Source: Catajapyx aquilonaris
Taxonomy: Eukaryota
Assembly (NCBI GenBank): GCA_000934665.2
Contig: JYFJ02001620.1
Location: forward strand, 1 to 64,000
Direction of reading: 5' to 3'
Length of the DNA: 64,000 bases
This document shows positions 25,401 through 64,000 of this stretch, in pieces. The notes under the pieces are model-generated. The model did not search any database. It was not told the DNA's origin and was given only the letters and a program-made list of their open reading frames with translations. A program made the translations under genes and the position numbers. Numbering within the stretch: position 1 is the stretch's first letter; each line of letters starts with the position of its first letter.

Positions 25401-27425
25401 AATAAATGCAATAAAAGTTCGCTTGCACATGGTAATATTACACAACACATTGCCACTTAATTACAATTAGTGTAAAGAGGGCTTTGTAGTGATTTTAAAG
25501 GAGCTTGTGACGAAGTTTTTGCCTGCACATCATGTGTAACGGAAATCTATACCTCTTTGAATCCATAGTCTTTGATGTTGCACTGTAACTTAAGCAAAGG
25601 GGCCTATTGAATATTCAGCTTCTGTATGTAGCCTACCTGGGCACCTTACTTTACAGTCTATTCCTATAGGAGCATTATAAAATTACCATTTCGCCCAAGC
25701 TGCCGGTACTGCCATAACTGAGTCAAATTAGCCAGCTTAAATTCCAGAGATGAAATATCGAGCAAAATGCCTGTGCAAAGGTATTTCTTAATCATTCCTG
25801 TAAACTTTTAGGGTGAACTTACGGGAATCAGAGAGTAATTTTATGTTCAAGTGTCATTTGTCTCCGAAGCCTTTCACTGAGAAAATTATAATTAATTAGA
25901 GTGCAATGTACTACTGTTACTTTTTATGTGAGGAAGCCTATGGTGATATATCAATGTCGTGGAAACTGCCGACTATACCTAACGAGATCACAATTATTTG
26001 TTGTGCAATGCATGGTAAATAGGTATGTTTATTTTAAAATAAAAAGATGCACTTACAATGAGTGATGCATACCTACAAGGATATTGCATAACTTGTGTTT
26101 GATGATCATTATCTCGATAAGGAGGCTGATAATTGATCTTTGATATAACATTCAAAATCGCCAATGTGTTTTAGTCTGCAAAGATTAGCATCTGAGAATA
26201 AGAGACCAAACTCGTATTTTGCCCCAAAAAAAGTATTTAAGACGGCCTTACCTTATGTAAAGTGATGTATTCGACGGATTAAATGTGCCTAGTATAGCAT
26301 CAGTTGCGGGAGAGGGCACGGAGCTCCAGCCCACACTTCTCTTGGATACTCAATGTCTGCTCAATGTAATGCGGAAGAAATCTCAAGAGTGACCACGCAT
26401 GTCATTCTACGATTCAACTCGATCCTTACAAGTCCGTGTCATTGCTCAGGTTTTGGATTAGTTATGCGTAGCCTGTATTCAAGAGTATAAAACTACATTA
26501 GTATAGCTAATTCTTAATACGATTCAGCAAAAACAACAGCCTATTTGGTGCAGAATTTTTCCTTACAATGAAAAATATACACATTCCAATGTTCAGATTA
26601 TAAAGGAACATAAATACGAATGAGTTTAATTATATTATAAATGATTATAAAGTTGCTGGTACTTTTCGACAGGCGTACGTAAGTTCTGACTGTGAGAGAA
26701 GAGCACGCAGAGTTTTACATTTTTTTGTAGGCTCGTAATGTATTCTACAGTAGTGTCATTATGGTCTAATCCTTAATATAAGGTTATCTAGTGTCTTTTG
26801 TGTTGCATCGCTAAAAATGAATAATTATTGTCCAAGACCGTTGATTCTATGCAAATGTCAAGGTAAGTCAGTCTGCAAGTCCTACCTACTTTTCTCCTTT
26901 TTGTGTAAACGCGTTTGGTATCATGTTATCCTGTAAAGAGTATAAATCTCTGAGAGAAGGAAATGACACGCAGATATACTAATGATTGGTTAATAACTTA
27001 TTTAATTTTTAACAGGAAAAGCTGGTATCTTCATGAGATATGACTTCATTTATTTTTCTATGCAATCGACCTGAAAAGCTGCTGGTTTATTTTATTTTAT
27101 TTTATTGATTGATTTATTTGTACATAACTGAAATGCTTTGTACTGTACGTACATAAACATAAAATGGATTTTGACAAGTAATGCCCAACTGGTGATAATT
27201 TACCATTGAACGACTTAAATGGTTGCTAAATTGTGTGACAAAAAAATTAAAGCAAATTTGTTGCACCCTACCTTTGAAATAAATTGAATTCACTTTACTA
27301 TCTCACAGTAGGCTTTGATAATGGGCGTCGTTCACAATGAGGCAACTTGCTAGTCACATGAACACAAAAAAGTTTGCACGTTGATGCAGGTGACAAAACA
27401 TGTACGGCACAAGTAATAATGATTA

Positions 27426-41500: not shown

Positions 41501-44500
41501 GCTACGTAAATCTCTTCCGGATCGAAAGGAGCTACGTCAGCTTCGTTGTTGTGGATCTTGTACAAGCAATCCAATCTGCAAAAATAAAACTTTGTGTAAG
41601 AGGGTTTTTTTTGTCGCCACCTGATCCAGCTTCCAGTCACTTTTTTTTGTGACTACCACCGTTGCCGAAGACTTTAAGTTCAAAGAACGCGTCTACTATT
41701 TCACGGGAGACACGTCGGATTGTATTCCGGTTTATGCAAACGATCCTCCTTCGAGCTACCCGAGAAACTTCACGCAAGGAGGGATAGGCTTGTTTTTTTT
41801 TGCTTAGTTGAGATGTTGTTACAACCATTCTGATCTCAATCACACTCGGATGCGAATTAATTGCGGAGTTTTGGAGGGAACATGCAACCTGTGATTACGT
41901 GCTGTTATGTTATTACATTAGGCCTAACAATGTTCGCCTCATTTAATGGTTAGAAAATTTGAACTGAGGGTAAAGAGCGGGCAAAAAAAACTAATCATTT
42001 CTTGACGCTTGCGAGAAAATTCAGATTACGCAAAGGTTTGCATTAGATGAGTAAATATACAAATGTAGCCCTACTATAAAGGGCATTTTATATTCAGAGT
42101 ATTAAAAATTCAAAAAAAGTAGGAGATTACAACTTTTTGCTTTCTCATCCTTTCATGTATAAGCAAACTCCTATGGGCGTTAACTTTGTTGGTAACTAAA
42201 ATTTAATTGTTTTTCCTATTTAGCTACTACGTAATTATAATTTTCAATAGTTCTGTACTATCATGGTCTAGTTACAAAAAGTCAGTTACAGTGACAACAT
42301 GAGTCCTCAAAAAATTAAAAATATGGCTTTAGTTGTTGCAGTATACGACGTGTGCTGTGTGTAGCTTGGGGGCTTACAGTAATTATGATTTCGTATGAAA
42401 TATTGGTATAACTCTGCGTGTGCTGTAACTTTCTCGCGCTTGCAAAGTAATTTAATAATCCTGGAAACGGACAGGGTCAAAAGGCTCAACACTGCTGGGT
42501 TGCCCGAGCTTTTCAGCGAATTGGGTTGGAGGAACCCTTAATAACTGGGCAAACAGGAAATTACTGACCAAAGTTGGATTTAATTAACCCATCCCCTCAG
42601 GTATGTGCACGCAGGATCTGAATTCATTCAACCGAATGCACCAGTTCAAAGATTTCCGCGGCCTAGATGGGTACTTTCGATCACGATACTTCCAAGACGA
42701 CCTGCATAAATTGGTACCCTTTTCAAACGAAGGGTACCCAAGTTTCAAGCAGGTTTGCTCAGATGGGTAAAGAACTGGTTACAAGTTTTGAGTCCAACAT
42801 GAATTATGGTTACTGCAAATCAACAATGATAGCAGACGCAACTATAGCATGACAAATGTGGCTATCAAACGAACTTTTAAATTAATTTAAAATTATTGCA
42901 ACAACTGCAGCACTGTTCCCGCTGTTAAAATAATTCTACCCATTTTATTAAGGAGATAGCTGGGAGAAATTACGACATGCTTACTCCAGCAAACCAGTTC
43001 AAAAAGAACAAACATTCTGCACTTTGAACTGGTTTCTGGCCCGGGTAAACAATCCATAACTTTTCATTGTTGAGCCCTGCAATTCGCATAAAATTCGTAC
43101 TATTTAAGTGCTATTTATGCGCTAATGAGCAGGAAACAGCCTGGATGCTGATCTTCCCAGTTGGATCATGTAAACACTTAATAAGTTATTGCTCCCCAAT
43201 GTAAAAGACAGCTAATGCCTTGACCTTGCCCACATCGCATGTGTATCCGCCATTCACATGTCCCCTTACAAATTGGATGGCATTAATCTTTGTCTTTGTT
43301 TCTGCAAAGCCGGCAATTAAGCTATACAAGCCCCGACTCCCTTTCCCTGCACGAAGTTCGGAGGCTGCAGTGGCGATTGTTGTCACTCACTTGTCTCTGG
43401 CTGGGACGCACTGCAATCTGGTTCCGTCCGGAGGTGTGGCCGAGGTGTCCACCATCATCTGCTCACATTGGGTGTAGTACTCCTCAGGCACGCACAGACG
43501 ATCTAAAATTACAGAGAAAACCATCGTGCACTGTTCCCACAAGTCTTATTGTCATCTCATAACTCCTGTCATATTTAAGGTCACTGAGCAAAAACCGTAT
43601 CCAGCCGAAGCCAGGCTTATTTTAAAGCGCGGATTATTATTGTGCGGTACAAAAATATTGTGTGCTGAAAATTTTTAGATAGCTGCTCTCGGCATGAAAA
43701 ATGTAGCGGAACAGATCTGGAGACGTGGACACGTCCGAAGAAATCCTGTCTCACGAAGCTAAAGTGGGTTCTTCTACAGGTGATCCGTGACATCATTTCC
43801 TTCCTTTCCTTAATTTTTCCCACGGTGCCCGGCAGCCCAAGTGGAAACCCGGTCTTGAGCCCGTTCCTGAGCTGAATGCGTTATTAAGGCAGCAAGAGCA
43901 ACACTATATCGAAGAGCCCCCTTTTTTCACTTCAGGGTTGTCCGTTTTATACACTCCGATTTACAGATACATGCTAAGGGGATGGGCGTGGGCATGTTTA
44001 TACCGGTGCAATGCAGCTTTTTTTTTAAAGGTGTCTCTTGCTTGAACGCATCCTCATCATCACCTGGGACTCAAGGGCGGCATCGTTTGAGCACCTGCAC
44101 AAGTCCTTGCGAGGCGCAGTCGAAACTCGTTAATCAGCAATCAAATTCATGGCTAATGCCAGGGATGTCACGTTTATCTACTGGGCTCTGTTTAAAATGA
44201 CGATTTGTTGTCATAGAAGCCCCATCAACTCAAATGGAAAATTCTGCTTGGCTATACATTGAAAGGGTGGGGTGTATCAACAAATATTAAGCAAAATTTT
44301 GCATTAGGAACATTGCATGAAATAACTAAAGATTGCGTTCATACTGTACAACTGGACTTAAAAGTTGTTTTATTACAATCAAGAATACTTTTTGACTATA
44401 CATCCCACACCATTCCTACAAGTCTTATAATTGTCATCTAATAACTCCTGTCATATAAGGTCACTGATGAGCACTAGAACGACAAAGATTATTGTTGTGC

Positions 44501-44907
44501 TACAGATATGAATATATGTAGTACAAAATATGACGGGTTTCTTTCATTTGCGCTCATACAACGATTTCTGCCCACAAGTTTGACTTCCAGTTATCTGCTG
44601 CCCTGTCAAATTCACCGGAATAAAAAAAAGTCGGCTCTGCAATGTATGCTTCTCCTTGTAAACATACAGACGTAGCATTTATTCGAATATGAGATATCGA
44701 AAGGTCAGCTTGAAAGGCTTTGCCATGCTAGAGATACGTGCCTAAGATTAAACATTAACTCAGCATTAAGTTGCAACCAATATTTCGATTCTTAAACTCA
44801 CATTTTCTGTTGCGGTCGAATCCTGAGCCGGTCCCGAAGCATGCCGCCCCAACAATGAGCAACAATGGCCAGCACGAAGCGCAGCACTTCTTGTACATGT
44901 GCTTCAT
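35590..44907 (-). CDS. Tf-D: canonical arthropod Tsf1-type transferrin with both lobes ligand-competent and a C-terminal GPI-like signal; 15 exons
   Basis: Signal MKHMYKKCCASCWPLLLIVGAACFGTGSG; YRLCVPEE...CVPARDKLDCL. N-lobe: FDPEE, RYEAV, SCHTGFGRTTGW, YAGYIGTLRCL, GRPWTAF. C-lobe: IALDAG, SYYAVAV, SCHTGYGRTAGW, FYSYTGAFRCL, RVPAHKV. Ends IRNCNGALGLCPTYWTILPVIIAMMARLV*. Confidence 0.95.
40939..41200. mobile_element. Non-autonomous hAT-type MITE (262 bp) in Tf-D intron 3
   Basis: Terminal inverted repeats CAGGATTTCTCAA ... TTGAGAAACCTTG (11/13 match), flanked by a perfect 8-bp target-site duplication CTATAGAC at 40931-40938 and 41201-41208. Confidence 0.85.
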
Positions 44908-47647
44908 CTCGGTTGGAGAGTTGAAGACAGAAGCTGCCGCGCAACCACCCTCGCTCGACTACCACTACTCATGAGACTGCCTCAGGCTCAGGGGTATAGA
45001 GAGAGAGGAGAGGAGGTGGAAGAGGAGAGAGTAAAAGTAGAGGGGGGGTTGGTTTGGAGGAGAATCAGGAGGTTGCAGTACGGGGGTGGTGGGGAGGACT
45101 TGCTTTGCTCCTTTTTTTTGTGTGTGTGTACAGAAAACACCGGCAGTGAGATGCCCTAAGGTAATTTCGATACCCTTGGCTCAGGTTTAGGTACTCGAGG
45201 TAACAAAAAGTTGGAGGGACACTTGGAGCCTGTTGATAACTTTTCAAAGTGATGGGGCTGATGACCGCCGCAATATTGCTAATAAAATGCGACACCTTTT
45301 TGACTGTCCTAGACTAACTAGGTGTTTCGTAATACAGTAATAATTCGGACAAACATGTGTAGGATGATTTCATACGGACCAGAAGATCATTTTATGTGGT
45401 GTCATTTAGTTTTCGAAGAGTCGTTAACTGAAATAATGGGCGTACAAGTAAAACACAATGCATGTGAAATATCCTGGCAGGTATGAATCCCTACATGCGG
45501 CCTCGCATTTCAACTGAAAAATTTAATCAGTGTTGCTATGTTTTAGTAATCAATAGCAATTTCATTATGGGTAGCAGGCAATGACTGAGAGGATGGAAGT
45601 GGTCTATTACAGTACCGACAAACGCTATATGAAAATGGCAGAATGTGCTATTAATCAGTGCTAATTAATTCAGTAACGAGTAAATCGTTACAGCTCAGAA
45701 TTACAGTCAGGTAAAAAAAATAGTCTCGACAATACCTGCATATGTGAATCGATATGGTGCAAGCATTTTAAAAAAACATTGCGATGAACTATATACAAGC
45801 TTACTTTATTTTGTTGCGCAGAAGCCTATATATAGCAAGAACCTCATCAATGATGTCATGATAAGGGTTGTATTCAATAAGAATATGGACTGTTGCCATT
45901 TACGCACTAAAAATACTGTTACTTGGCTAATTTCAGGACTATCGTTCAGTGATATGCATATGAGCAGAGACATTTCCAGTCCAATGTCATCAGTGGATCA
46001 TGACCTAGTTACATCGATCAATACGCAAGAAAGAATTTCTTGGAAAGCATTTATCTCTGTTTGGCAGAATATTTCAATGACGTGGCCTAGAGGTCACAGT
46101 CATACAATGTAAGTTTTGCATATTTCACTTACCAGCAGTTGGAGAAAACTAGAGAGGAGTAAGGGGCCAATAACCACATTTTTACTTTCACCACAAGTTT
46201 TATCAAGTGACATTAATTGAATATAGGTGAGAACGAAAAGTAGGTTCCAAGTCCACTTCTCTTAAATTGGTTGCAAAATATTTTCCACATGCTGCGTATG
46301 TCCATATTTTTTCACGTTCCCAGTCCAATTGGATACCACAGAAATGAACGATCGTGAAGAATATTCCAGAACGGCAAGGGCTCTTGAAGTTCATATTTTC
46401 CATTCATTGCATGGCGAGTATCAGGTTATGAAAAAAGCTCCAAAACGGCCCAGGTCATCTCGAAGGCCAGTGATAGATAGAGGAGCATGAAGGTCACTTT
46501 TTCCATGTTCAAAAACGATGTCGCGTTAAATGGGCACGATATATCGTCATTATTATGATAGGTCACATATTTATGAATGCAGTTTTGGTAGGCTACTCCA
46601 TACCAGAGCAATTAGTGTTTTAAAAGTTTAAAATATTTTGTCCAAGATAAACACTTAATTGTCATTCGAGGGATTTTTTCCGGAAATAAAAAGCGTGTCG
46701 GCCTGGCTGAAGCTGCGAAAATATTATTTTGCTATATTGAGATACTGTATACATAATTATGTGCCAATTTGAAAGTCATGAGAACATCTGACTATGAGCA
46801 GTACGTGATGTCATTCATAACTTTTCGAAAGGCCATCTGTTGCTGCATTTGGCTAATTTACAATTATTTTCTCACTCGATTTCTCCCCTGAATATTTACG
46901 CTGCAGAACACGATGTGTAGCAAGTTGGACAAGTGGAAAGAATGAAAAGGACCAATGCTCAGCAACGTAATCACATTACCATTTTACAAACTCTATTCGT
47001 ATTTAGATGTTAGATGGTACCACCGGATTTTAGGTCTTTTATAGGCTCCTCCAGGTTATCATTTTTATCAAGTCTTAGTGCGACACTCATTTTGCCAATT
47101 ATAATAATGCGTTATGGTTCATGCTTAGCTCAATTAAGAAAATTCTCCCACGACCTTTTCAAAGACATTGTCAAATTATAGCAATTATTATTATTGTACA
47201 CTTGTAGAGCCTGTAAGAAAATTCGATATTTCCTGCCCCTTTCTCAGCTCGAGTGTCTTGATCGCACCGCTCATCATACCACTTTCAAATGCCTGTTTTG
47301 GATATTTAAAAGCTGAAAGTCTTTTACATATTTTATTTTCATGTAGACCCACTTCCAACTTCATATTCATATGGGTTCACCTATAGAGGAGCTATGCACT
47401 AAAATTACCGACGTTTTTAAAGGCTTAGTAACAACACCGATAACACCTTGTTTTCCGGTCACAATACATTGCATACAAATACACATCTTTTGATGGTAAA
47501 TAATAATAATAGACAAACACATCCTGTACTGCTCTTCAAAGTACAGTAAAATACTAGAGCAACAAAATCTGGCAATGATCTAGCTGAGTATAGCAGGAAA
47601 CTCCAAATGACTTTCCCTCAGCTGCGCTGGTTGTCCATAGCCTATAC

Positions 47648-47649
<2 letters not shown>

Positions 47650-47714
<65 letters not shown>
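47650..47714. repeat. (AAT)n microsatellite, ~21 units
   Basis: Perfect TAA/AAT run. It explains the poly-Tyr ORF at 47580-47786. Confidence 0.97.
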
Positions 47715-47963
47715 TAATGTTCCCCTCTCTGAATTATTCTTCTCTGGGGCAATTTCATTACGTATAATGTGGTAATAGCACATCAATAAATCTCACTCTT
47801 ATATGGCATATTTGCAAACACATCAATAAATATTACATATACCGCCACAATATGCAAAGCAACAGTTTAAAAAATTGAGCAACACATATTTTTATATCTT
47901 GCCTGTTTCGCATCACATTTAAATAAATCTAGGAGCTAACTGGTACTTATGATAACACCACTG

Positions 47964-50860
47964 TTATTCCTTCTTGTTGCAGAATTCTTCCGGCTTTTGA
48001 TCCGTTTGGCAGATGAGTTTGGCGCAATTTTCGAGGGAAAGAGCTTGACCGACACCTGCACATGATAAAAACAGCACAAAATATTTGACGCAAATCCAAA
48101 AATAAATTGCCCTTACCATTTCCTTCCTCTGCGTCGTTCTTTTTGCCTGGAAAAAAAAGACACAGCATGAGAAGCATTTGTTCCCAGGTCGGATTGTCAA
48201 AATAATTGTGTTCCTCCAAAAAATAATTGCGACCATCATACTTACCGTATTCTTGAGGAAAGGACACTGCCTGTGGGTCACTCTCAGTGGAATACTCCCC
48301 GTCCACTGCCACCACCTTGAAGATGTACACCTGCCTGGGTACCAGTCCTCTGAGGACCACGCTGTCCTCAAACCTCTTGGGCTCGCTCTTCTTGTACTCG
48401 GTCCGGTCACTCCTCCTGTACATCACATAAAATCTGGACCCGCACACCCCTTTCAAGTTGGGCAACCAAGTGATCTTGACCTCCGCCGTGTCGTCCCTGG
48501 CAGACGTCAGCTGTCTCCAAGTGAAGCCGGGCTTGTCCGGTCTCAGCATCGCGTTTGGCCTGTCGCTCATGGTGCTTTTCTCGGTGAACTCGCCAAACCC
48601 TTCCCCTGCATTGTTGCTGGCCTTTATTGTCACCCTGTACTTGGTGTCCGGTTCCAACCCACCGAGTATGGCGCTGGTTTGATTCGGAGCAGCAGGAGGA
48701 TTCCGGATGTGACGAGGACCGATGTAGATCCCGTTCACGATCTCGTAGTAGATCGTGTACCGAGTCAGGACACCGTTTGGTTCCTTGGGCTGTTTCCACA
48801 CCAGGTACAATGCTGATGAGCCAAGAGGATAGGCGTCCAGGGAGCTGACTGGACCTGGAGGACCTTCAGGTGTGTAGAAAGAGATGGTCTTGCTTGGAGG
48901 ACCGTCGTATTTCCGGTTGTAAGCCAGTACTCTGAGGTAGTTCTTGCAGTTTGGAGACAGGTCGTGCACCGTCGCTTCGTTCACATCGCTCTTGATCAGT
49001 AGCTCACGCACGTTTCCTTCTCCGTTCTTGTCTGTCCATATCTGAATCTGAAAATATTAATCAAGAAAATGCCATTACGTCGTATTTTCGCTCATCAGGC
49101 GGTATGACTCGTATGACAAACCTTGTATCCTTTGAAGTATCCACGGACTGAATCGCGGTCGACCGGATCCCACCTGATGCTGGCCGTTTGTCCGTCGATG
49201 ATGTTGACCAGGGTGACATACCTGGGAGGGTCCACAGGTTTCCCTTCACCTGAGTATCCAATAACCTCTCTGGGCTTGGCTCTGGAGGGACCCAGCTCAT
49301 TTATGGCTATCACCTTCACCCTGTACTTCTTGTACGTCGGTTGGCTTGGTACCATCAGGCTGGACACTGTCCAGTCGTGGATGTCCGCCACTGTCCAGAG
49401 TTCCCCAGGGATGTCCCTCCGGAAGTACACGCGGTAATGGAACCCAGGTGCACCATGCTGGTCTTCAGGAATGGGCTGAAACAATTCCAATTTACATAAA
49501 AGTACCCTGTATGATGATAAATACTTACGTCCCAAGTGATAACCAAATTGTCCGGAGCCGTTCCTGCGGCACGCACCACGTCCGGGTTCTTGTCCGGAAC
49601 TTTGAGAGGCGACTGACACGCATCTGAAGACGACGAGGGTTCAGACGCCCCGACCTTGTTGATGGCGATAACCCGGAAGGTGTAGTTGGTCCAGGGCTTC
49701 ATGGGTACGGACACCTTGTAGCGTGTCTCGCTGGGAGGTACGGAGTCGCTGTCTCCTATCCAGTTGCCAGGACTGGAGCTGGTGCTGTACTCTATCTTGT
49801 ACCTGAGTATGGGCGATCGGTTGTCTCCAGTCGGACGCCATCGGACTGTCGCGTCATCCTTTCCGCAGGTGAGTCCAGTCACCTTTGGAGGGTTGGGCAC
49901 GTCCTGTATGACCAGGCTCATGGTCGAATGGGCCTCGTCCAGTTCTGTGGATGCTTCGCAGGTGTATGACCCGCTGTCCCGCATCTTTGCCCGCACGATG
50001 AGGAGTGAGTTGTAAGGAGCTCGGGTCATTCGTTGTTCCTCTTCGAGGTCGATGGGCTGACCATTTTTGAGCCATCTGACCGTCGCGGTCAGAGATGGGT
50101 CGGTCACCACTCTGCATGCAAGCTGGACACTAAGTCCGACCGGAACCTCATAGTCTTCTGTTTCTAATATCCTAGTGCGCTCTGAAACATTTGACCAAAT
50201 CATTGCCAGAAGATTGACCATCTTTAAAAAAAAATTAGAACAATAAATATTGGTTTGTGTGATAATTTCAGTTGTCAAAAATTTAATTACTTCATGCTGC
50301 CAGTACTACACGTACTGTACAGTACAATCAATGCCGCACTTTATTCGATGTGTCGGATACTCTGGATACAAACTCACCTCTTACGATAAGTGATCCTTCG
50401 TACTGAGCAACACCCATAGAGTTGCTGGCACTGCATGTGTACTTTCCCGAATCAGAAGGCTGCACATCCCTGCATAAATAAACATCTCATTTAGGCAAAC
50501 TTGTCGAGACGAATAATGTCGGGACACACTTACCTGATTTTCAGATCACCTTCCGACTGGACCGTGTACCTACTTCCGACGAGGTTATGCCCGTCTTTCA
50601 GCCAAACAAACCGAGGCTTCGGATCTCCTTTGGCTCGACAGGACAATGTCACAGTTCTTCCGGCCACTGTCACCTCATCCTTCATGAGTTTTGTAATCAA
50701 AGGGGATGTTCCGTTTTTGCAATCATCTCCTGGAAAACAGTGTTTATGGCGTGGTAAAGCTCCATTAGAATTAACCTAGTGTATACTTACCATAAGCTGA
50801 GTGTCCCAATTGCAGTAGAACCACCAGAAGAATCGCAGCAGTAACAGTTCTGGGACCCAT
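47964..50860 (-). CDS. Secreted neuroglian/L1-CAM-derived protein, 762 aa: signal peptide + 2 Ig + 5 FN3 + short Cys-rich tail; no TM or cytoplasmic domain
   Basis: 8 exons with GT-AG sites and consistent phases: 50791-50860, 50534-50729, 50378-50469, 49529-50181, 49122-49475, 48246-49047, 48117-48146, 47964-48055 (2289 nt). Contains L1-family motifs DSGSYTCEASTELD, QDVPNPP, GDNRSPILRY, PWTNYTFRVIAINKVG, VPDKNP, GYSGEG, VRGYFKGYKIQ, FYTPEGPPGP. Confidence 0.9.
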
Positions 50861-52772
50861 CTCGACTGTGTCTTCTTCACTTGGCAGCCTCTTCCTTAGA
50901 TGAAGTCTCGTTGCCTCCTGCCAAGAGATGCTACGTCACAATTTTACCGTATTGATGACCTGGTAGGCCGTCTCGATGGTCCATTTCCAATCAGATCAGG
51001 TTCGCAACAAAAACTTTTATGGGAACGCACCACATAGTCTAGGTCATGAGGCTCACCGGCAAGGTGAGTCTGGTAAATGAATGGTTCCGCTTAAAAACAA
51101 GCATCTCGTGAAGGTGGATACTGAAATTTTCAGGCAAAATGATCGCCTAAATATTTTTTGCAACTAATATGCAACAGTTTATATCACGCAGCAATGTTAT
51201 GCATGGTAACGGGATTGCTGCAGTACCGGTACTTCCTGTTTTGCACTTAAAAATAATTATTCTATCATATTGTTTGTTTTGCCATTCTAATTTGCAAGAT
51301 CTTTTTTGTCACTTGAGAATCTCTTTTAAATCGCTAAAATGTTTCCCTGCAAGAGATATGAGAAATAAAAACTGTACCTAGCAGAATTATAGTAGCACAT
51401 AATTATCACGAGAAATTTTTCGATATAGTTGTATTTAGCTGACAATAATTCTGTTTGTACAATTATTGATATTAGCATAGCATTTTTCATGCTCTTTTGT
51501 CTAAAAACTATCAGAGGATCCATGCATTTCCATCAAGCTCCGCAAAACAGACGCAGGCTAATAATAACTCTTGATCTTCTGTAAGATCAACGCCTAGCAC
51601 TATAGTGCTATAGTGAATAAAACACTTCAAAATGTGGTTTGCACAATTCCTTGCAAGATCATGTAGCGGTTTGCAATCAAAATGCATCCATTATATAACA
51701 GGTTGACCGCGTGTGCAGAGAAGTAGTGCTGGCATCCATCCAAGTAACGAAAATCTATTACGTCTAGAGCATGTGTACCTTATTCAAATGCCACTAGACC
51801 AGCATTCCTCGGCGTATTCAGCAAAGAACACCGGCACAACGGCCACAACCTATAAAAAGTTGGTCTACTAGTGAATGAACAATGATGTTGAGGATGGTCG
51901 CATAACTGCACCCGAAGAAATAAAAACAATCTGGTTTTTATATAGAACATCCTGGTTTTATTTACGAGAAACCATACATGGCTACAAACAGCGTCATCCC
52001 GGCAAATGAGGGCATATTGAAATAATCATAAAATAATTCGCAAACACATACACCTGAATAAGTGATAAGGTTCACTTAAACTTTCATGCAAACTCACCAG
52101 TTTCTTGCGTTTGTCACGAAATATTCTCTTGAGATAGAAGCGTCGTGTCGGTCATGTTATTATCATATCTCCACGAGAAAACTCTAATAGAGCAATGTTG
52201 GTTGCCTAAATCGCAGGATCGCAAAAAAAACTGCATCAGCAATATATTATCCTGTTTCTTCCTCATCTAACAGGATTATAGAATATGAGTTTGTCTGCAG
52301 ATTGGGGAGCCACAAAGTATATTCGCACATTTTCTTCCATTAAATCTAAAATATTTGAGTTTCTGTTCTCCTAAAGCAATCATAAATAATTTGAACTTAT
52401 TTAAACTCATCAGTTATTCCCCCTAACATATCTGAAGCTGCAATTAAATTATTGCAATTATTATATGTGATTACTTGCTTTCCACATAGTAACTTGAAAT
52501 AGACAAAATGTAGTCAAACAAGTGCAAATAGTTACTGGTACAGTACTACTGTCAAAATCTACACAGAATATCTGTAGTAATTATGGAGATGGGTGCAGGT
52601 TGTCAGTAATGGGGTAAAATGCTTCTCTTTCATTTTTTATTATAAAAATAACTTCCAAATTGAAGTACAAGGTTAAGGGATGTGCCACTCTTGAGTACAG
52701 TTACTGATGTATTTTCTAATTTGAAGGTAACAAAAAAAACAACTTCACAAACAAAACCCTTTTGTTGCATCC

Positions 52773-55700
52773 TCAATTTTCCTTGCAGTAATCTTGAGGT
52801 TTCTGGGCCACTGTGGTGAAAAGTTGAGCGCACTGGATCAGAGTGAGAGAATTGGGTCCAGCCTGACAGTCTCGGACTCTCTTGAGCATTGTCAAATAGT
52901 CAGTCTCAACTGGTTCGATTGGGACAATGTGAGCCACAGTGTCCTGTGAATAAAAAAGAACAATGGCTTTAAAAAACCAACAATGGCAATCTTAGGTAAA
53001 AAGCTTTCTTTTTAAAGTCACAAGATGCTGGGGAAAAAGGACAAGCAAAGCACAAGACTCACCGACAAAAAGTTACCCTCAGCTTCATATGGAGTGAACA
53101 AGTGGAAGTTCTGCTCCCCATCTTCACCCCCAAAGACATCGTTGATGTTCAGCAGAGCTTCACGAATGTCTTCCACCGCCACAGAGCTCTTCTTAATACT
53201 CGTCACAATCTGTTCCAACAAAAATAATCCTTTGAATTCACATATAAATACTAGCTTATTTCTGAATACAGTTTGTAAGCTTGACAGTCATAACCTCATT
53301 CATAACAACTTGGTAATTGGTATGAAAGTAGACTCACCTTACTCCCTGGAACCTTTCCCCAGTTGCATTGCTTGTACTCCTCAACTGGTCTGAGCCCACC
53401 TTCCTTGCACAGGAGACGGAAGTCAGAAGACTTGAGCTGGGAAGCCCAAGGGGCCTCACTGTGACCATCTGCATATAAAAATGTCAGATTTAGGCACACA
53501 GATTAAACATTAAAGGAACTGCAAAAGCAGTTGTCAAATAACTAAAGCAAATTTTCACCTGTATTGGATTCAACTACAAGGTGTTTGGTAAAGGCAACAT
53601 CGCCATGGCCTGAAGCCAAGCATCGGAAAGCACCATCATAGCCATAGAAGGCTTCGTGGTCAGTGGTTGAGCACTTTGAAGCTCCATTCCTTGTGTACTG
53701 GGGGCCACGCGATGTTTCCACCACTGTAATGAAAATCTTTATAATATATTTCTCAAACATAACATCCTCATAAAAAATAGATATCACAAATATTACGTAA
53801 CATTAAAACTGTAATTCTTCTAAATGCACGAACTTAGGAAAAATTGAACAACAGCAACATTTAGAGAAAAAAACCAAACTTTCAATCAATTGCATGTACT
53901 GTACGAAAACAATCGTTGAAAAGTTTTTTTTGTTTTCTTTGTCTCAGCTTACCATCCACATCCTCGCCTACACAAATGGAGCAGAGGCCTTCAGGATTGG
54001 TTCCCTGAGGATCATTCTTGGAGTCTTTGGCTCCTGGTGCACAACTTCCACCAGCAAAGAAGTGAGACATGGCAGTAGCATAATCACAGTCAAATGGATA
54101 AATTAACTGCTTTTTGGCCAGAACATGAGCAGGGAAGAGGAATCCTGCATGGCACTTGAATCCAGAATGGCATGACCTCTTTCCCCTCAGGTCTTCCACA
54201 TTGTGAATCCCTGAGTCTGCCTTGACCACTGCCACACTGTAGTACCGGTAGGGGCTGGTTCCTTCCACAGTCAAGCTCACCACAGGTATGAAGTCCTCAT
54301 CAGAATAGACTTCCTTAGAGTATCGCACCATAATGTCAGCTTCACCTCTGTTGATCATTGCAGCACACTGGTCACGACTTTCAGCCTTGACACATGCAAT
54401 GCCAGGCCTAATCCTTCTTGAGTGAGCTGCGGTTGCAAATTCCAAGCATTTTGCTTCCTGCAACATGGTGTGTGTTGGCAACGTTAGTGAACAGTTCTTG
54501 CTCCGGACACATTTGTAAAGGATTGGTAATAATTTTCATGTAAGGTTTGCTGCACTATATTGAAACAGAGCATTCCTTATATTATGGAAAATTAATTAAA
54601 ATGGCTACTGGTACTCATTAATTATTATTAAAACACCAACAAGTCACAGAAATGCTTAATGGAAAGACTGGCAATAAAGTTTCAGCGAAGAAGGAATGAA
54701 AGAGGTACCTCTCCATCATTAATATTTTATGCTGATAGATAGTTTCTCACCTGCTCATTTCCAACCACACACCACCTAATGAGCTTGTCTTGGCTGCAAC
54801 TTGGGCGATCAATTGTTACATTGTAGTTGGAATGATCAATGTATGAAGACACAGACACAGGGAAGGGCATGTTGTACTGGAAGTCACGCTTTCCCATTCC
54901 CAGCACTTTGGAAAGCCAATCGTTGTTGAGAGAAAGGTACTTGAGCTGCCTGAGTTGCCGTTTGATTTCAATGCCATGAATGGGATCTGCCTCGTTTCTC
55001 ATGACAAATGCACTCCAAGGTCGCCCTGCCCAGGTGCAAGGTTCATTTGAAGTTACTGGCATCAGTTGACCATTGGGGCAGAGAAGACTGAAGTCTTGCG
55101 CATTCTCATACTTCAGCACACTCTGAAGATTAATGGGCACAAATTAGTGATAGGAACATAAATAATATACATCAGAGATCCTAAATCAGTGCAGTTCAAA
55201 CTAGATCACTGTCCTTCAGGCCACTTTTATTATCAAATAGTGTATATGACAAAATAAACTACTACATGCCATGTACTGTATCACAACACAAGCCTACGTC
55301 AGATAGATTCAAGTTTTGTGTGGATTGCAGAATATTTATTGAGGTAGAACAAGCTCACCTGAACAGCACTCATCTTTGTCCAAGCAACATCTCCATCACC
55401 TTGAGTCAAGCACCGGATTGTCCCCTCGTACCCAGCGTATACGTCATCACCATCACAAGTCTCAGGATGTGAGCACAGATCACACAATGAATGGTATTCC
55501 CTCTCTAAGAAGAAGAAATAATCAGTGAAGATCATACAAAAATTAATGGTGTTGTCCATATTTTTAAAACTTACTGAGTTTCTTGCTGACATCCTCATCA
55601 TTTCCCCATATGAAGGGAACGCAGGATGGCCCAAAGAATTGAGCCACAGAAGAAATTTCATTCTCCAGTGTAGACTTGCTTGCATCACAGTTTAATGGAA

Positions 55701-56545
55701 TGATTCCATCATGCATCAGCTGTAGAAAAAAATATTATAAGAGTATTTCCTGATTTTCCAACAAGTAAGAGTAAAAAATTCCATACCTGTGAAATAGGAA
55801 CTCTCCAACCAGCCGTTCGGTCATATCCCGTATGGCATGACTTCTTGCCTCGAAGATCATTCAAATTATGGACCTCACCACTATTTTTAATCAATGCAAC
55901 AGCACCGTACCGATAATCATCTGGATAATTTAAATACAATTACTTAATAAGCCAGGAGATCCTGCAGTTTTATAAACTTACCATTTGCTCCAGCCATACT
56001 TCTGATCTGCTGAATGACAACCAAATCTTCTCCATATAATTTGCCAGCTACATAAATATCTTCAGGGTCAAGTAGAGCAAAGTCTGCCTTTTCCTTCGCA
56101 ATTTTGTGAATGCAGTCAAGTCTGAAATTGTTGAACGTATAGGCACCAAAATACTCTCACACATGTTGCTATGCTGATGGTTACATGCTGCGACTCTAGC
56201 GAGCCTTATGCCATACGTGTAAGAAACTCACTTGTCTCGGCCTGATACGCAGTTGAGGTTCACCTTTCCAAGACCATTGACGGCCTCAAGCATTTCCAGA
56301 CAGGAACTCATTACATTCTCCGGAACACAAATCCTCAGTCTTGTAAAGAGCATGTTCTCAGTTTGTTCTTGCTCCTGCTGCTGTTCTTGACCTCCTTTAT
56401 ATTGCCCTAAAAAATGAAACACATTAGGATTAATCACACCGGTATAAGATTATAACACTGATTAAGCAGTAGAATATTACAAACCATGGCCTAAGTGAAC
56501 AACTGCGCAACAGGCAGCCGCAAAAATGATAGTCTTAAGCCCCAT
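52773..56545 (-). CDS. Tf-E: secreted transferrin paralog; N-lobe ligands intact, C-lobe degenerate; Gln-rich N-terminus; Cys-containing C-terminal extension; 12 exons
   Basis: Signal MGLKTIIFAAACCAVVHLGHG; LRICVPEN...CVSGRDKLDC; LLDPED; YRYGAV; SCHTGYDRTAGW; YAGYEGTIRCL. C-lobe: ADIMVRYS, SCHSGFKCHAGF, KVPGSK. Ends RVRDCQAGPNSLTLIQCAQLFTTVAQKPQDYCKEN*. Confidence 0.93.
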
Positions 56546-56574
56546 GTTCCTAATGTGAATGGCAGGACCTCAGT

Positions 56575-56765
56575 GCAGGCTGGTATAATTTATGCGCTTT
56601 ATATACCCGCATCGTGATGAATGTCATATCTGACGTATGTCACTGGGAAATTCCACGCAAAAAAACATCCAATGGCTAGCTGCCAATCAGTGATTGATGG
56701 ATTCTCAGAAGAGGTCAATAGCAAGGGCCAAAGAGGGCATCAATATTATGAACTGGAAATTCCAG
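56575..56765 (-). promoter_or_regulatory. Tf-E core promoter: TATA box with kappaB and STAT motifs
   Basis: TATATAAA on the minus strand at ~56598-56605, about 55-60 nt upstream of the ATG; GGGAAATTCC at 56645-56654; TTCTCAGAA at 56702-56710; TGGAAATTCCA at 56754-56764. Confidence 0.6.
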
Positions 56766-62233: not shown

Positions 62234-64000
62234 TCAAAGCTTAGGTGTAATATTCCTCATTTGTCTTACTGCAGCCACCAACCGTGGAGGGAATCCCCTG
62301 GTAGCAGTGCCATAGTCATCAGGAGGTATTTTCAGCAGACCATTTAAGTTCTGCAAGTTGTCACTCAAGGAAAATCCTAGGTCATCCAGGATGTTCCCCA
62401 GGTAGTCTGAAATGATCAAGTGCCTATTACGATCATGTCATTACATTCGAGCACTACGCTCTGCTCTCAATTCAACCCTGGGAGGTCTGCCAGTGCTCAA
62501 GGTAATTTCCCAGTTCATAAATGTCACCTCAATCATTACCAAGATATATGTGTAATGATTAAACCAGATTTATGTGTTGCAAAAGTACAAAATCAGTTTT
62601 TACTATTGGATTGCACGAGACAGTTAAAATATAATGATAACAATTCCCAAAAACAAGCTGACGTAAAAAAATCCTCCTCATACCTATGTCTGTAGAAAAC
62701 TGTTTTGCATCCCCTGCATTCAGCTCTCGTATCCTCATCAGCTGCTCAGCATATGCTTGACACGTTGCTTTGGCTATGCCTCCAAGGAGCACCTCCCCTG
62801 GGCTGACACCACTTCCTACTCCAGCACCAAACTCGACGCCCAACACCTGCCCTGATCTGCAGGCCTCCTCGAAGGATCTGCTGAGTCCAGGATTGTCTGA
62901 AAGCACAAAGGGCTCCAGATGCTGTGGTAGCATCATAAGATACTGCCCCACTTGGGTGATGTACTCTTGTGGTGAGAAACTAAATGATGGAAGGTCCGCC
63001 AACACTCGGGAAGTGTCACCAACACGTGCTGCGAGTAAATCTAGCTGTGTCGATACTGGTGCAAATACAACTTCAATTGATGTACGAGTGATATCACCAC
63101 AAGTTTTGGACGCCCACTCAGAAACTTCGCCCAAAAATGACTCCTCGTTTCGTACTCTGGCTATGAATTTTTGTAAACTGGTCACTTTTTCTGGCCTTAG
63201 CAAGACCTCTGTCATATCAATTGAATCCAACTTGGCAACAATGATGCGGTCCACTGCTTCAATCTGGGCAGCCATTTCTCCAGAACATTGCATAAAGCTC
63301 AGGCACTGTTGGAACAGCACCCAGTCCTCTTCACGCCGTTGTCTCTCCAGCTGCCTCAAAACAATCTTGTACTTGTCAATGTAAGATCCGAGGTATGATT
63401 TCAGAGCATGATGCAGTCCCTCAGCACCAGATCCATCAGTGAAGCGCCAGCATCTAGCCACACTGTCTGCTATCACACCTGGCAACCGAGTCACTGAACG
63501 AGCCAACTCACGAATGGATTCACCTAGGTCTGACTTCACCAGCTTAGCTGCATTGCTCAAAAGGCACGCCTCTTCAATTGTGCCATACCGGCATACATAC
63601 AATACATATGGAGAGTACGTTGCTTTTGTAAACTCCATTTTTTCTGGGGTGCCTTCTTCCAAAAATGAGGACTCTGCTGCCTTATAGAAACGAGCTGAGT
63701 TGTCCTTGAGGTCACACAGGAATTGCAAGTGATCCTCTTGAGCCTGCTGCTTTAAGCCAGCTTCAATACAAAACTCCATTGTTGGGTCCAGGCTTGATAA
63801 TACATCTGTGTGTAACGCCACTAGCAGTGAAGCAGTTGCTGCGGAACCAAACACAGCCCCACACCATCTGGCCTGATCATGCCAGTTTGATAAGACATGA
63901 TCGTAAAACCGCGCAGACCAATCAAGAACACCAGCCTTCGCATCATCCTCTGACTCAACCAATTGTCGCCACCTATTCACCAGGGATGTTCGTTCGCATT
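62234..64000 (-). CDS. COG7: Conserved oligomeric Golgi complex subunit 7 (3' part; gene continues beyond the window)
   Basis: Exon 62684->64000 contains EDWVLFQQCL and LPSFSFSPQEYITQVGQYLMMLPQHLEPF. Last exon 62234-62406 gives DYLGNILDDLG...VRQMRNITPKL*. Confidence 0.92.

Follow-up and report, generated by a model that had tools for sequence, protein, structure and literature searches.

In L1-type proteins such as arthropod neuroglian, homophilic binding is mediated by the module of immunoglobulin (Ig) domains 1 to 4 (Ig1-4), and Zhao and Hortsch reportedly stated in 1998 that the L1/neuroglian family has gone without exon shuffling since the split of arthropods and chordates. Exon-shuffled chimeric genes with phase 1-1 modules are familiar from Patthy's rule and from new genes of the jingwei type. 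Hemolin of Lepidoptera, a soluble protein of the immune system, consists of four Ig domains and is most like neuroglian Ig1-4; it is not known to contain a transferrin-derived part. The immune role of hemolin is described in two papers (PMC9163686, PMC11999971). Here we describe Ngl, a neuroglian-like gene that lies within an array of transferrin genes in a 64,000-nucleotide (nt) stretch of DNA from Catajapyx aquilonaris (assembly GCA_000934665.2, contig JYFJ02001620.1, positions 1 to 64,000; the whole stretch is called the window). Sequence comparison gives good support to Ngl being a chimera, in which the neuroglian segment from Ig5 to the fifth FN3 domain (Ig5-FN5) is joined to a C-terminal exon of the type found in Tf-E, a melanotransferrin-like member of the array. 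No neuroglian-transferrin chimera is described in the titles and abstracts among the literature matches listed.

Ngl resembles arthropod neuroglian/L1CAM (e.g. isoform X2 of Bemisia tabaci, P0003) in the collinear order of Ig5, Ig6 and five FN3 domains. Residues 32-719/740 of the modelled protein are collinear with neuroglian residues 429/431-1116/1139 at 47-49% identity, covering Ig5, Ig6 and FN3-1 to FN3-5, and the best database identities of this block (46-49%) are to insects. The five FN3 domains, matched by Pfam fn3, correspond in order to neuroglian residues ~620-1116, and the modelled protein contains two Ig domains only, which match Ig5 and Ig6. Unlike neuroglian, Ngl is without Ig1-4, the membrane span and the cytoplasmic ankyrin-binding tail, and it carries its own signal exon and a foreign, hydrophilic, cysteine-containing tail. 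Neuroglian residues 1-430 (Ig1-4) gave no more than weak cross-matches in the window, which fell on the two Ig exons of Ngl, and for residues 1117-1254 (membrane span and cytoplasmic part) no tblastn match was found in the window. As Ngl lacks three of the four features that define neuroglian, it is not a member of that family. It is not a transferrin either; Pfam Transferrin (PF00405) did not match the open reading frames of Ngl, and no transferrin lobe was seen.

The gene was modelled at 50860-47964 on the minus strand with eight exons (Table 1), which gives a predicted 2289-nt frame of 762 amino acids (aa) without internal stops. All seven modelled introns are GT-AG, with phases 1, 2, 1, 0, 0, 1 and 1. 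Because introns were retained, a partial duplication at the DNA level is indicated rather than a retrocopy, and exons 2-6 would have been copied as DNA from the neuroglian exons that encode Ig5, Ig6 and FN3-1 to FN3-5. A tree built from the Ig5-FN5 region placed Ngl among insect neuroglians (support 80/83), on a branch of 1.24 as compared with 0.23-0.47 for canonical neuroglians (3-5 times longer). A search for orthologues among representatives, with FN3-3 to FN3-5 as query, returned nothing above 56% identity among the best 150 of 3771 matches, and that on short fragments only.

A separate contig, present in all five runs (2867 nt in run X4), matches only positions 49649-49693 of the exon that encodes FN3-1, with 6 differences in 45 nt. 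On both sides of this match the contig is unlike Ngl, and its depth in the RNA-like run X5 is 3.75. The contig probably belongs to the parental neuroglian or to a different L1-type gene, and the duplication would therefore be old. Apart from this 45-nt match from another gene, the exons of Ngl had no cover in run X5, which is not evidence on expression either way.

Ngl could also be a piece of a full-length neuroglian gene that extends past the window and has the transferrin genes nested in its introns. The purely predicted nature of the Ngl model leaves some room for this, yet it is hardly credible: the Ig5 exon is preceded, at a distance of 61 nt, by a good signal exon, a stop follows FN5, and no exon for the conserved membrane or cytoplasmic part occurs in the 48 kb downstream. 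Furthermore, the upstream side is occupied by Tf-E, Tf-F and COG7 on the same strand, and the DNA runs as well as X5 contain a separate neuroglian-like FN3-1 sequence from elsewhere.

The evidence for a transferrin contribution comes from the end of the gene. The last exon of Ngl and the last 30 codons of Tf-E encode 10 identical residues out of 30, among them two aligned cysteines within the exon, the final Cys and a QKP motif. The stop codons of the two genes lie 3 and 4 codons past the final Cys, and in both genes the match breaks off 3-4 codons ahead of the stop. In scans of all six frames, which cover the whole 64-kb window, the Tf-E tail and the last Ngl exon are reciprocal best non-self matches. 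Their ungapped score is 58 (55 within the exon), whereas the best-in-window scores of shuffled tails were 38±3 with maxima of 50 and 46; none of 300 shuffles reached the observed score in either direction, and it stands ~6 standard deviations above the shuffled best-in-window scores. In tblastn the match had an E value of 0.001, the next best match 0.13. At the DNA level 48 of 90 nt are identical, with 16, 20 and 12 of 30 at codon positions 1, 2 and 3, a pattern that fits conservation at the protein level. By these sequence comparisons the homology of the two tails is robust, and a transferrin contribution to Ngl is therefore very likely. Adjacent segments of Ngl thus differ in their parental homology, the core being that of neuroglian and the tail that of Tf-E and not of neuroglian.

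Two tail alignments of other kinds were discarded. An origin of the candidate micro-exon and tail from the juxtamembrane part of neuroglian was rejected, as the BLAST extension was at chance level (12-295 of 300 shuffles equalled it, depending on which of 10 neuroglian-type proteins was used). A gapped DNA alignment of the tails, which pairs pyrimidine tracts and acceptors, has many gaps and runs out of frame, was read as a likeness of splice signals and not as homology.

It could be argued that Ngl contains no transferrin part at all and is a truncated neuroglian paralogue, the likenesses at both ends being due to chance or convergence. The matches are short (20 residues at the start and 30 at the end), and Pfam recognized neither the Ngl nor the Tf-E tail. 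However, a tail that scores ~6 standard deviations over shuffles, is a reciprocal best match and stays at chance level against 10 neuroglian-type proteins makes this reading very improbable.

In one respect the tail departs from a simple model. The stretch of Tf-E that it matches is internal to exon 12, at 25 codons from the phase-0 acceptor of the last intron (53062-52944), whereas Ngl enters it by a phase-1 acceptor. As the stretch is exonic in Tf-E, a new phase-1 acceptor would have arisen in Ngl inside former exon sequence. By eye, the part of the Tf-E tail that directly follows the conserved Cys of transferrins is similar to the corresponding part of Tf-D and to the Cys...Leu...Cys end of the vertebrate proteins, which suggests a transfer from transferrin to Ngl.

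The tail reading frame might instead be a decaying relic of a dead transferrin copy that lies just downstream and outside the Ngl message, which would then end elsewhere, for instance within intron 7, or Ngl itself might be dead or modelled wrongly. Reading past 48117 stays open to a stop at 47947-47949, the splice model of Ngl is a prediction, and its branch in the tree is long. Against this, a strong acceptor of the right phase joins the tail in frame to exon 6, with or without the micro-exon, and the 30 codons of the tail contain no indel or stop, show conservation of the protein type and end nearly where Tf-E ends. With the full 2289-nt frame and all splice sites intact as well, we regard a relic as improbable. 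As a separate observation, the 99-nt intron 6 (48147-48245) is in frame and free of stops, and its retention would add 33 residues.

The preliminary description of this locus had proposed that Ngl is a duplicate of Tf-E that kept its first exon and its tail while the core was replaced, and it held the match of the signal exons to be persuasive only together with that of the tails. On re-reading and scoring, the exon-1 peptides were as quoted there: they share 7 of 20 residues in register from Met1, with LGH at positions 18-20, the pair R/K at position 4 and the pair Q/H (CAA/CAC) at position 17, which amounts to a register-locked BLOSUM62 score of 35. When residues 2-20 were shuffled, p was 2.5e-5 for the score and 0.005 for the identities, values that overstate the significance because shuffling destroys the n/h/c layout of signal peptides. 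A more suitable null was taken from 62-70 real signal-like N-termini of other organisms, a small set whose pairs are not independent. In the register-locked comparison none of 70 such N-termini reached 35 with either partner, and in the all-vs-all comparison 2 of 2392 pairs did. When the first 24 residues were aligned locally with gaps allowed (62 non-redundant N-termini, 1891 pairs), Ngl and Tf-E scored 41, an additional in-register Tyr being encoded by exon 2 in Tf-E; eight of the 1891 pairs reached this score, six of which are plainly homologous and ~2 non-homologous. The signal match therefore ranks in the top ~0.1-0.4% of real pairs, or at roughly 1-3% when corrected for the six transferrin genes. 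The other five transferrin signal exons scored 12-21 against Ngl and 9-22 against Tf-E. Signal peptides carry little information and arise easily. The match, while unusual for two such peptides, is suggestive and no proof of common descent. Alone it adds moderate weight only.

The intron phases that had been put forward together with the peptides were checked as well. That a phase-1 intron splits a Gly codon after each signal exon is confirmed for Tf-E by a spliced contig of run X5 (intron 56484-56407, 78 nt, GT-AG); for Ngl it agrees as a prediction (intron 1 of 61 nt, with a GTAAGT donor and a pyrimidine-rich CAG acceptor). Likewise, the earlier claim of phase-1 introns on both sides of the neuroglian block was borne out in the predicted model, in which the flanking introns follow exon 1 and exon 6 or 7. 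Phase 1 is, however, the general rule for signal and Ig/FN3 exons, and all seven candidate signal exons in the window end in it. Phase-1 ends that are common to all seven are no evidence for kinship.

Several further results weigh against a descent of both ends of Ngl from Tf-E. Besides the small and non-independent reference set, signals of other proteins come within a few points: the unrelated P0035 (4127 aa) scored 34-35 with the Ngl signal (8 identities), neuroglian P0002 scored 26-34 with it (8 identities), and neuroglian P0001 scored 29-34 with that of Tf-E. In the six-frame scan of the window, non-coding translations equalled or beat the signal match (35 at 25800; 37 at 48208 with the reverse query), and shuffled signal queries had a mean best-in-window score of 34-35. 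The DNA of the two exons is identical at 29 of 60 nt, with 12, 11 and 6 of 20 at the three codon positions; third positions are thus at chance, and agreement at position 2 is expected between hydrophobic codons. No likeness was found at the DNA level when exon 1 was compared together with 200-nt flanks (117 of 500 shuffles scored as high), nor did blastn and tblastx of the Ngl and Tf-E regions report exon 1 or any likeness of introns. The kB-like palindrome GGAAATTCC was rejected as a shared promoter motif, as two copies lie upstream of Tf-E and none upstream of Ngl. At the other end, the acceptor of the Ngl tail matches no intron of Tf-E, and the first aligned Cys codon is intronic in Ngl. 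Apart from the tail, no relics of transferrin were found in and around Ngl (44000-52700). An insertion would have had to hit introns as small as 61 and 78 nt, and the splice model of Ngl is purely computational.

Much of this would be accounted for if only the tail of Ngl came from transferrin, i.e. if a last exon of the Tf-E type was captured while the signal exon arose de novo, out of the DNA immediately in front of the Ig5 exon, or came from another gene or the parental neuroglian, its likeness to that of Tf-E being coincidental. Equal scores in non-coding frames, chance agreement at third codon positions, flanks without likeness, unrelated signals within a few points and the uniform phase of the seven signal exons all speak for it. 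On the other hand, the signal match belongs to the top 0.1-0.4% of real pairs and is far better than the matches with the remaining five transferrin signals. It singles out the same neighbor as the tail does, and a capture of the tail alone would require a second recruitment event. We therefore consider this explanation unlikely, though it is the most serious of the alternatives.

On balance we cautiously favor the explanation that both ends of Ngl, signal exon and tail, come from a Tf-E-like copy with the neuroglian core between them. Both end-matches point to one gene, Tf-E, which is the immediate upstream neighbor. Tf-D, the closest paralogue of Tf-E in the window, has a signal and a tail that can barely be aligned with those of Tf-E, so the ends of Ngl are closer to Tf-E than those of Tf-D are. 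Given the tail, the most economical course of events is that the block was inserted once, into a Tf-E-like member of the array, and a signal match at ~0.1-0.4% of real pairs supports this course. The neuroglian block would have replaced the core of a transferrin duplicate whose start and end were kept. The Tf-E-like member would also have supplied promoter and signal exon, and the short 3' cap would descend from the last 30 codons of such a gene, read via the new phase-1 acceptor. Of the proposal in the preliminary description, the part that concerns the tail thus stands, by reciprocal best match and 0 of 300 shuffles, while a Tf-E-like origin of the signal exon is likely only, as support from DNA and flanks is missing.

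Table 1. Coordinates of the exons of Ngl and of selected features of its neighbors in the window.
Feature	Position	Strand	Content	Evidence
Ngl exon 1	50791..50860	-	start and signal peptide, 23 codons plus 1 base, then phase-1 GTAAGT donor	predicted
Ngl exon 2	50534..50729	-	7-8 residues without detectable homologue, then first part of Ig5-like domain	Pfam I-set/Ig_3, tblastn, blastp
Ngl exon 3	50378..50469	-	second part of Ig5-like domain; ends in phase 1	
Ngl exon 4	49529..50181	-	Ig6-like domain, FN3-1, start of FN3-2	Pfam I-set 1.9e-14, fn3 2.6e-13
Ngl exon 5	49122..49475	-	remainder of FN3-2 and start of FN3-3	
Ngl exon 6	48246..49047	-	FN3-3 to FN3-5, ends in phase 1; last neuroglian-homologous stretch	Pfam fn3 7.7e-28
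Ngl candidate micro-exon (exon 7)	48117..48146	-	30 nt, phase 1 at both ends, frame kept with or without it	splice sites and frame only
Ngl last exon	47964..48055	-	30-residue Cys-containing tail and stop; homologous to the end of Tf-E	tblastx, tblastn, reciprocal best match
Tf-E coding region	52773..56545	-	12 exons, 763 aa, 11 of 11 introns GT-AG	spliced contigs, Pfam Transferrin
Tf-E exon 1	56485..56545	-	signal peptide, then phase-1 intron	X5 spliced contig joins 56485 to 56406
Tf-E last exon (exon 12)	52773..52943	-	entered in phase 0; last 30 codons match the Ngl tail	RNA-derived joint 52944-53062
COG7 exon	62559-63998	-	479 codons uninterrupted, runs off the window end	best identity 37%, insects

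The window has a GC content of ~41%, compact genes and introns of 53-293 nt, and is eukaryotic in character; every gene found in it lies on the minus strand. Six transferrin genes stand in tandem at 9589-60828 and were named, from high to low coordinates, Tf-F, Tf-E, Tf-D, Tf-C, Tf-B and Tf-A. The mapping of these six genes bears out that Ngl adjoins Tf-E on the same strand inside a transferrin array, as had been claimed before; it is situated between Tf-E and Tf-D, directly downstream of the former. Tf-E is a real and expressed gene and is well represented as a transcript in run X5, the kind of which is not on record and which behaves as RNA. Contigs of this run show 11 spliced GT-AG joints over Tf-E (52722-56564), with word depths of 47-422. 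The best database identities of Tf-E are 41-44% (sea spider, decapods). Together with the values for the neuroglian block and COG7, they indicate an arthropod lineage that has no near kin among the proteins in the collections. Within the window it is 49% identical to Tf-D over 544 aligned residues and 43-44% identical to the other members. Its C-terminus is hydrophilic and contains Cys, that of Tf-D is hydrophobic and resembles a GPI signal, as in melanotransferrins, and Tf-A seems to stop directly after the conserved Cys. An intron at the tail junction of Tf-A was rejected, as the weak matches at 9658-9590 and 7792-7742 form no credible split exon.

Upstream of Tf-E, GGAAATTCC occurs at 56646-56654 and 56755-56763, within ~220 nt of the start, and three times in the whole window, where 0.61 occurrences are expected. 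TGACGTA, which is present upstream of both Ngl and Tf-E, was rejected as a shared motif since it is not enriched (8 found, 4.7 expected; 13 of 100 shuffles reach 8).

Further observations concern sequence variation and repeats. A contig of a second haplotype was found in the DNA runs at 50109-50285, with seven base differences and a 3-nt insertion. Three of the differences are in Ngl exon 4; those at 50163 and 50139 alter the residue in the frame as read, and that at 50150 is silent. Between the Ngl stop and Tf-D lies a long (AAT)n microsatellite (47645-47720). Two stretches ~880 nt apart, 43522-43574 and 44401-44456, form a direct repeat with identities of 96% over 27 nt and 79% over 28 nt. 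This repeat overlaps the beginning of Tf-D exon 2, where the exon boundary may have been duplicated in part. No convincing repeats were found to flank the neuroglian block.

As modelled, the Ngl protein is probably secreted and soluble, with two Ig and five FN3 domains and no membrane anchor. Because it is without the Ig1-4 module and membrane anchorage, the product could be a soluble binder or decoy that would not take part in the homophilic binding of the Ig1-4 horseshoe, and its Cys-bearing tail might permit disulphide linkage. Tentatively, an array member may have been converted wholly into a secreted Ig/FN3 protein, in which promoter region, signal exon and Cys tail of the transferrin were kept and neuroglian Ig5 to FN3-5 took the place of the iron-binding core; this fuller scenario is possible and remains rather doubtful.

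Several described systems share parts of this organization. Ngl has in common with Tf-E a homologous stretch of 30 residues at the end (10 identical), the position of the stop and perhaps the signal exon, while it differs from it by the absence of a transferrin lobe and by a tail that is read via a phase-1 acceptor not used in Tf-E. With classical exon-shuffled genes it shares, in the predicted model, a block of domain exons that is bounded by phase-1 introns and joined to parts of another gene. It differs from these in that the donor of its ends would be a neighbor in a tandem array and in that the 3' junction is a new acceptor in a former exon. A close counterpart is a predicted 'neuroglian-like' protein of the hoverfly Eupeodes corollae (XP_055914069.1, P0065, 710 aa), which has a signal, Ig5, Ig6 and FN3-1 to FN3-5 and no membrane span. 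However, this protein is 39% identical to Ngl, ends right after FN5 without a Cys tail, has a dissimilar signal and is not grouped with Ngl in the tree. Its truncation is probably independent of that of Ngl, and soluble paralogues of neuroglian that are shortened in this way may have evolved on more than one occasion. Hemolin is like Ngl a soluble derivative of part of a neuroglian-type ectodomain, but it corresponds to the opposite half of neuroglian (Ig1-4, no FN3).

If the chimeric origin is confirmed, Ngl would be a clear arthropod case of an exon-shuffled gene with two identifiable donors, one of them next door. It would then also join hemolin as a soluble derivative of neuroglian, but of another kind. 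If the array member was indeed converted as a whole, half of a neural adhesion molecule would have come under the regulation and the secretion route of a transferrin array, in which the neighboring Tf-E carries kB-like sites and is strongly represented in the RNA-like run, as a counterpart of hemolin made from the other half of neuroglian. The hoverfly protein, which covers the same span, hints that such truncation may recur.

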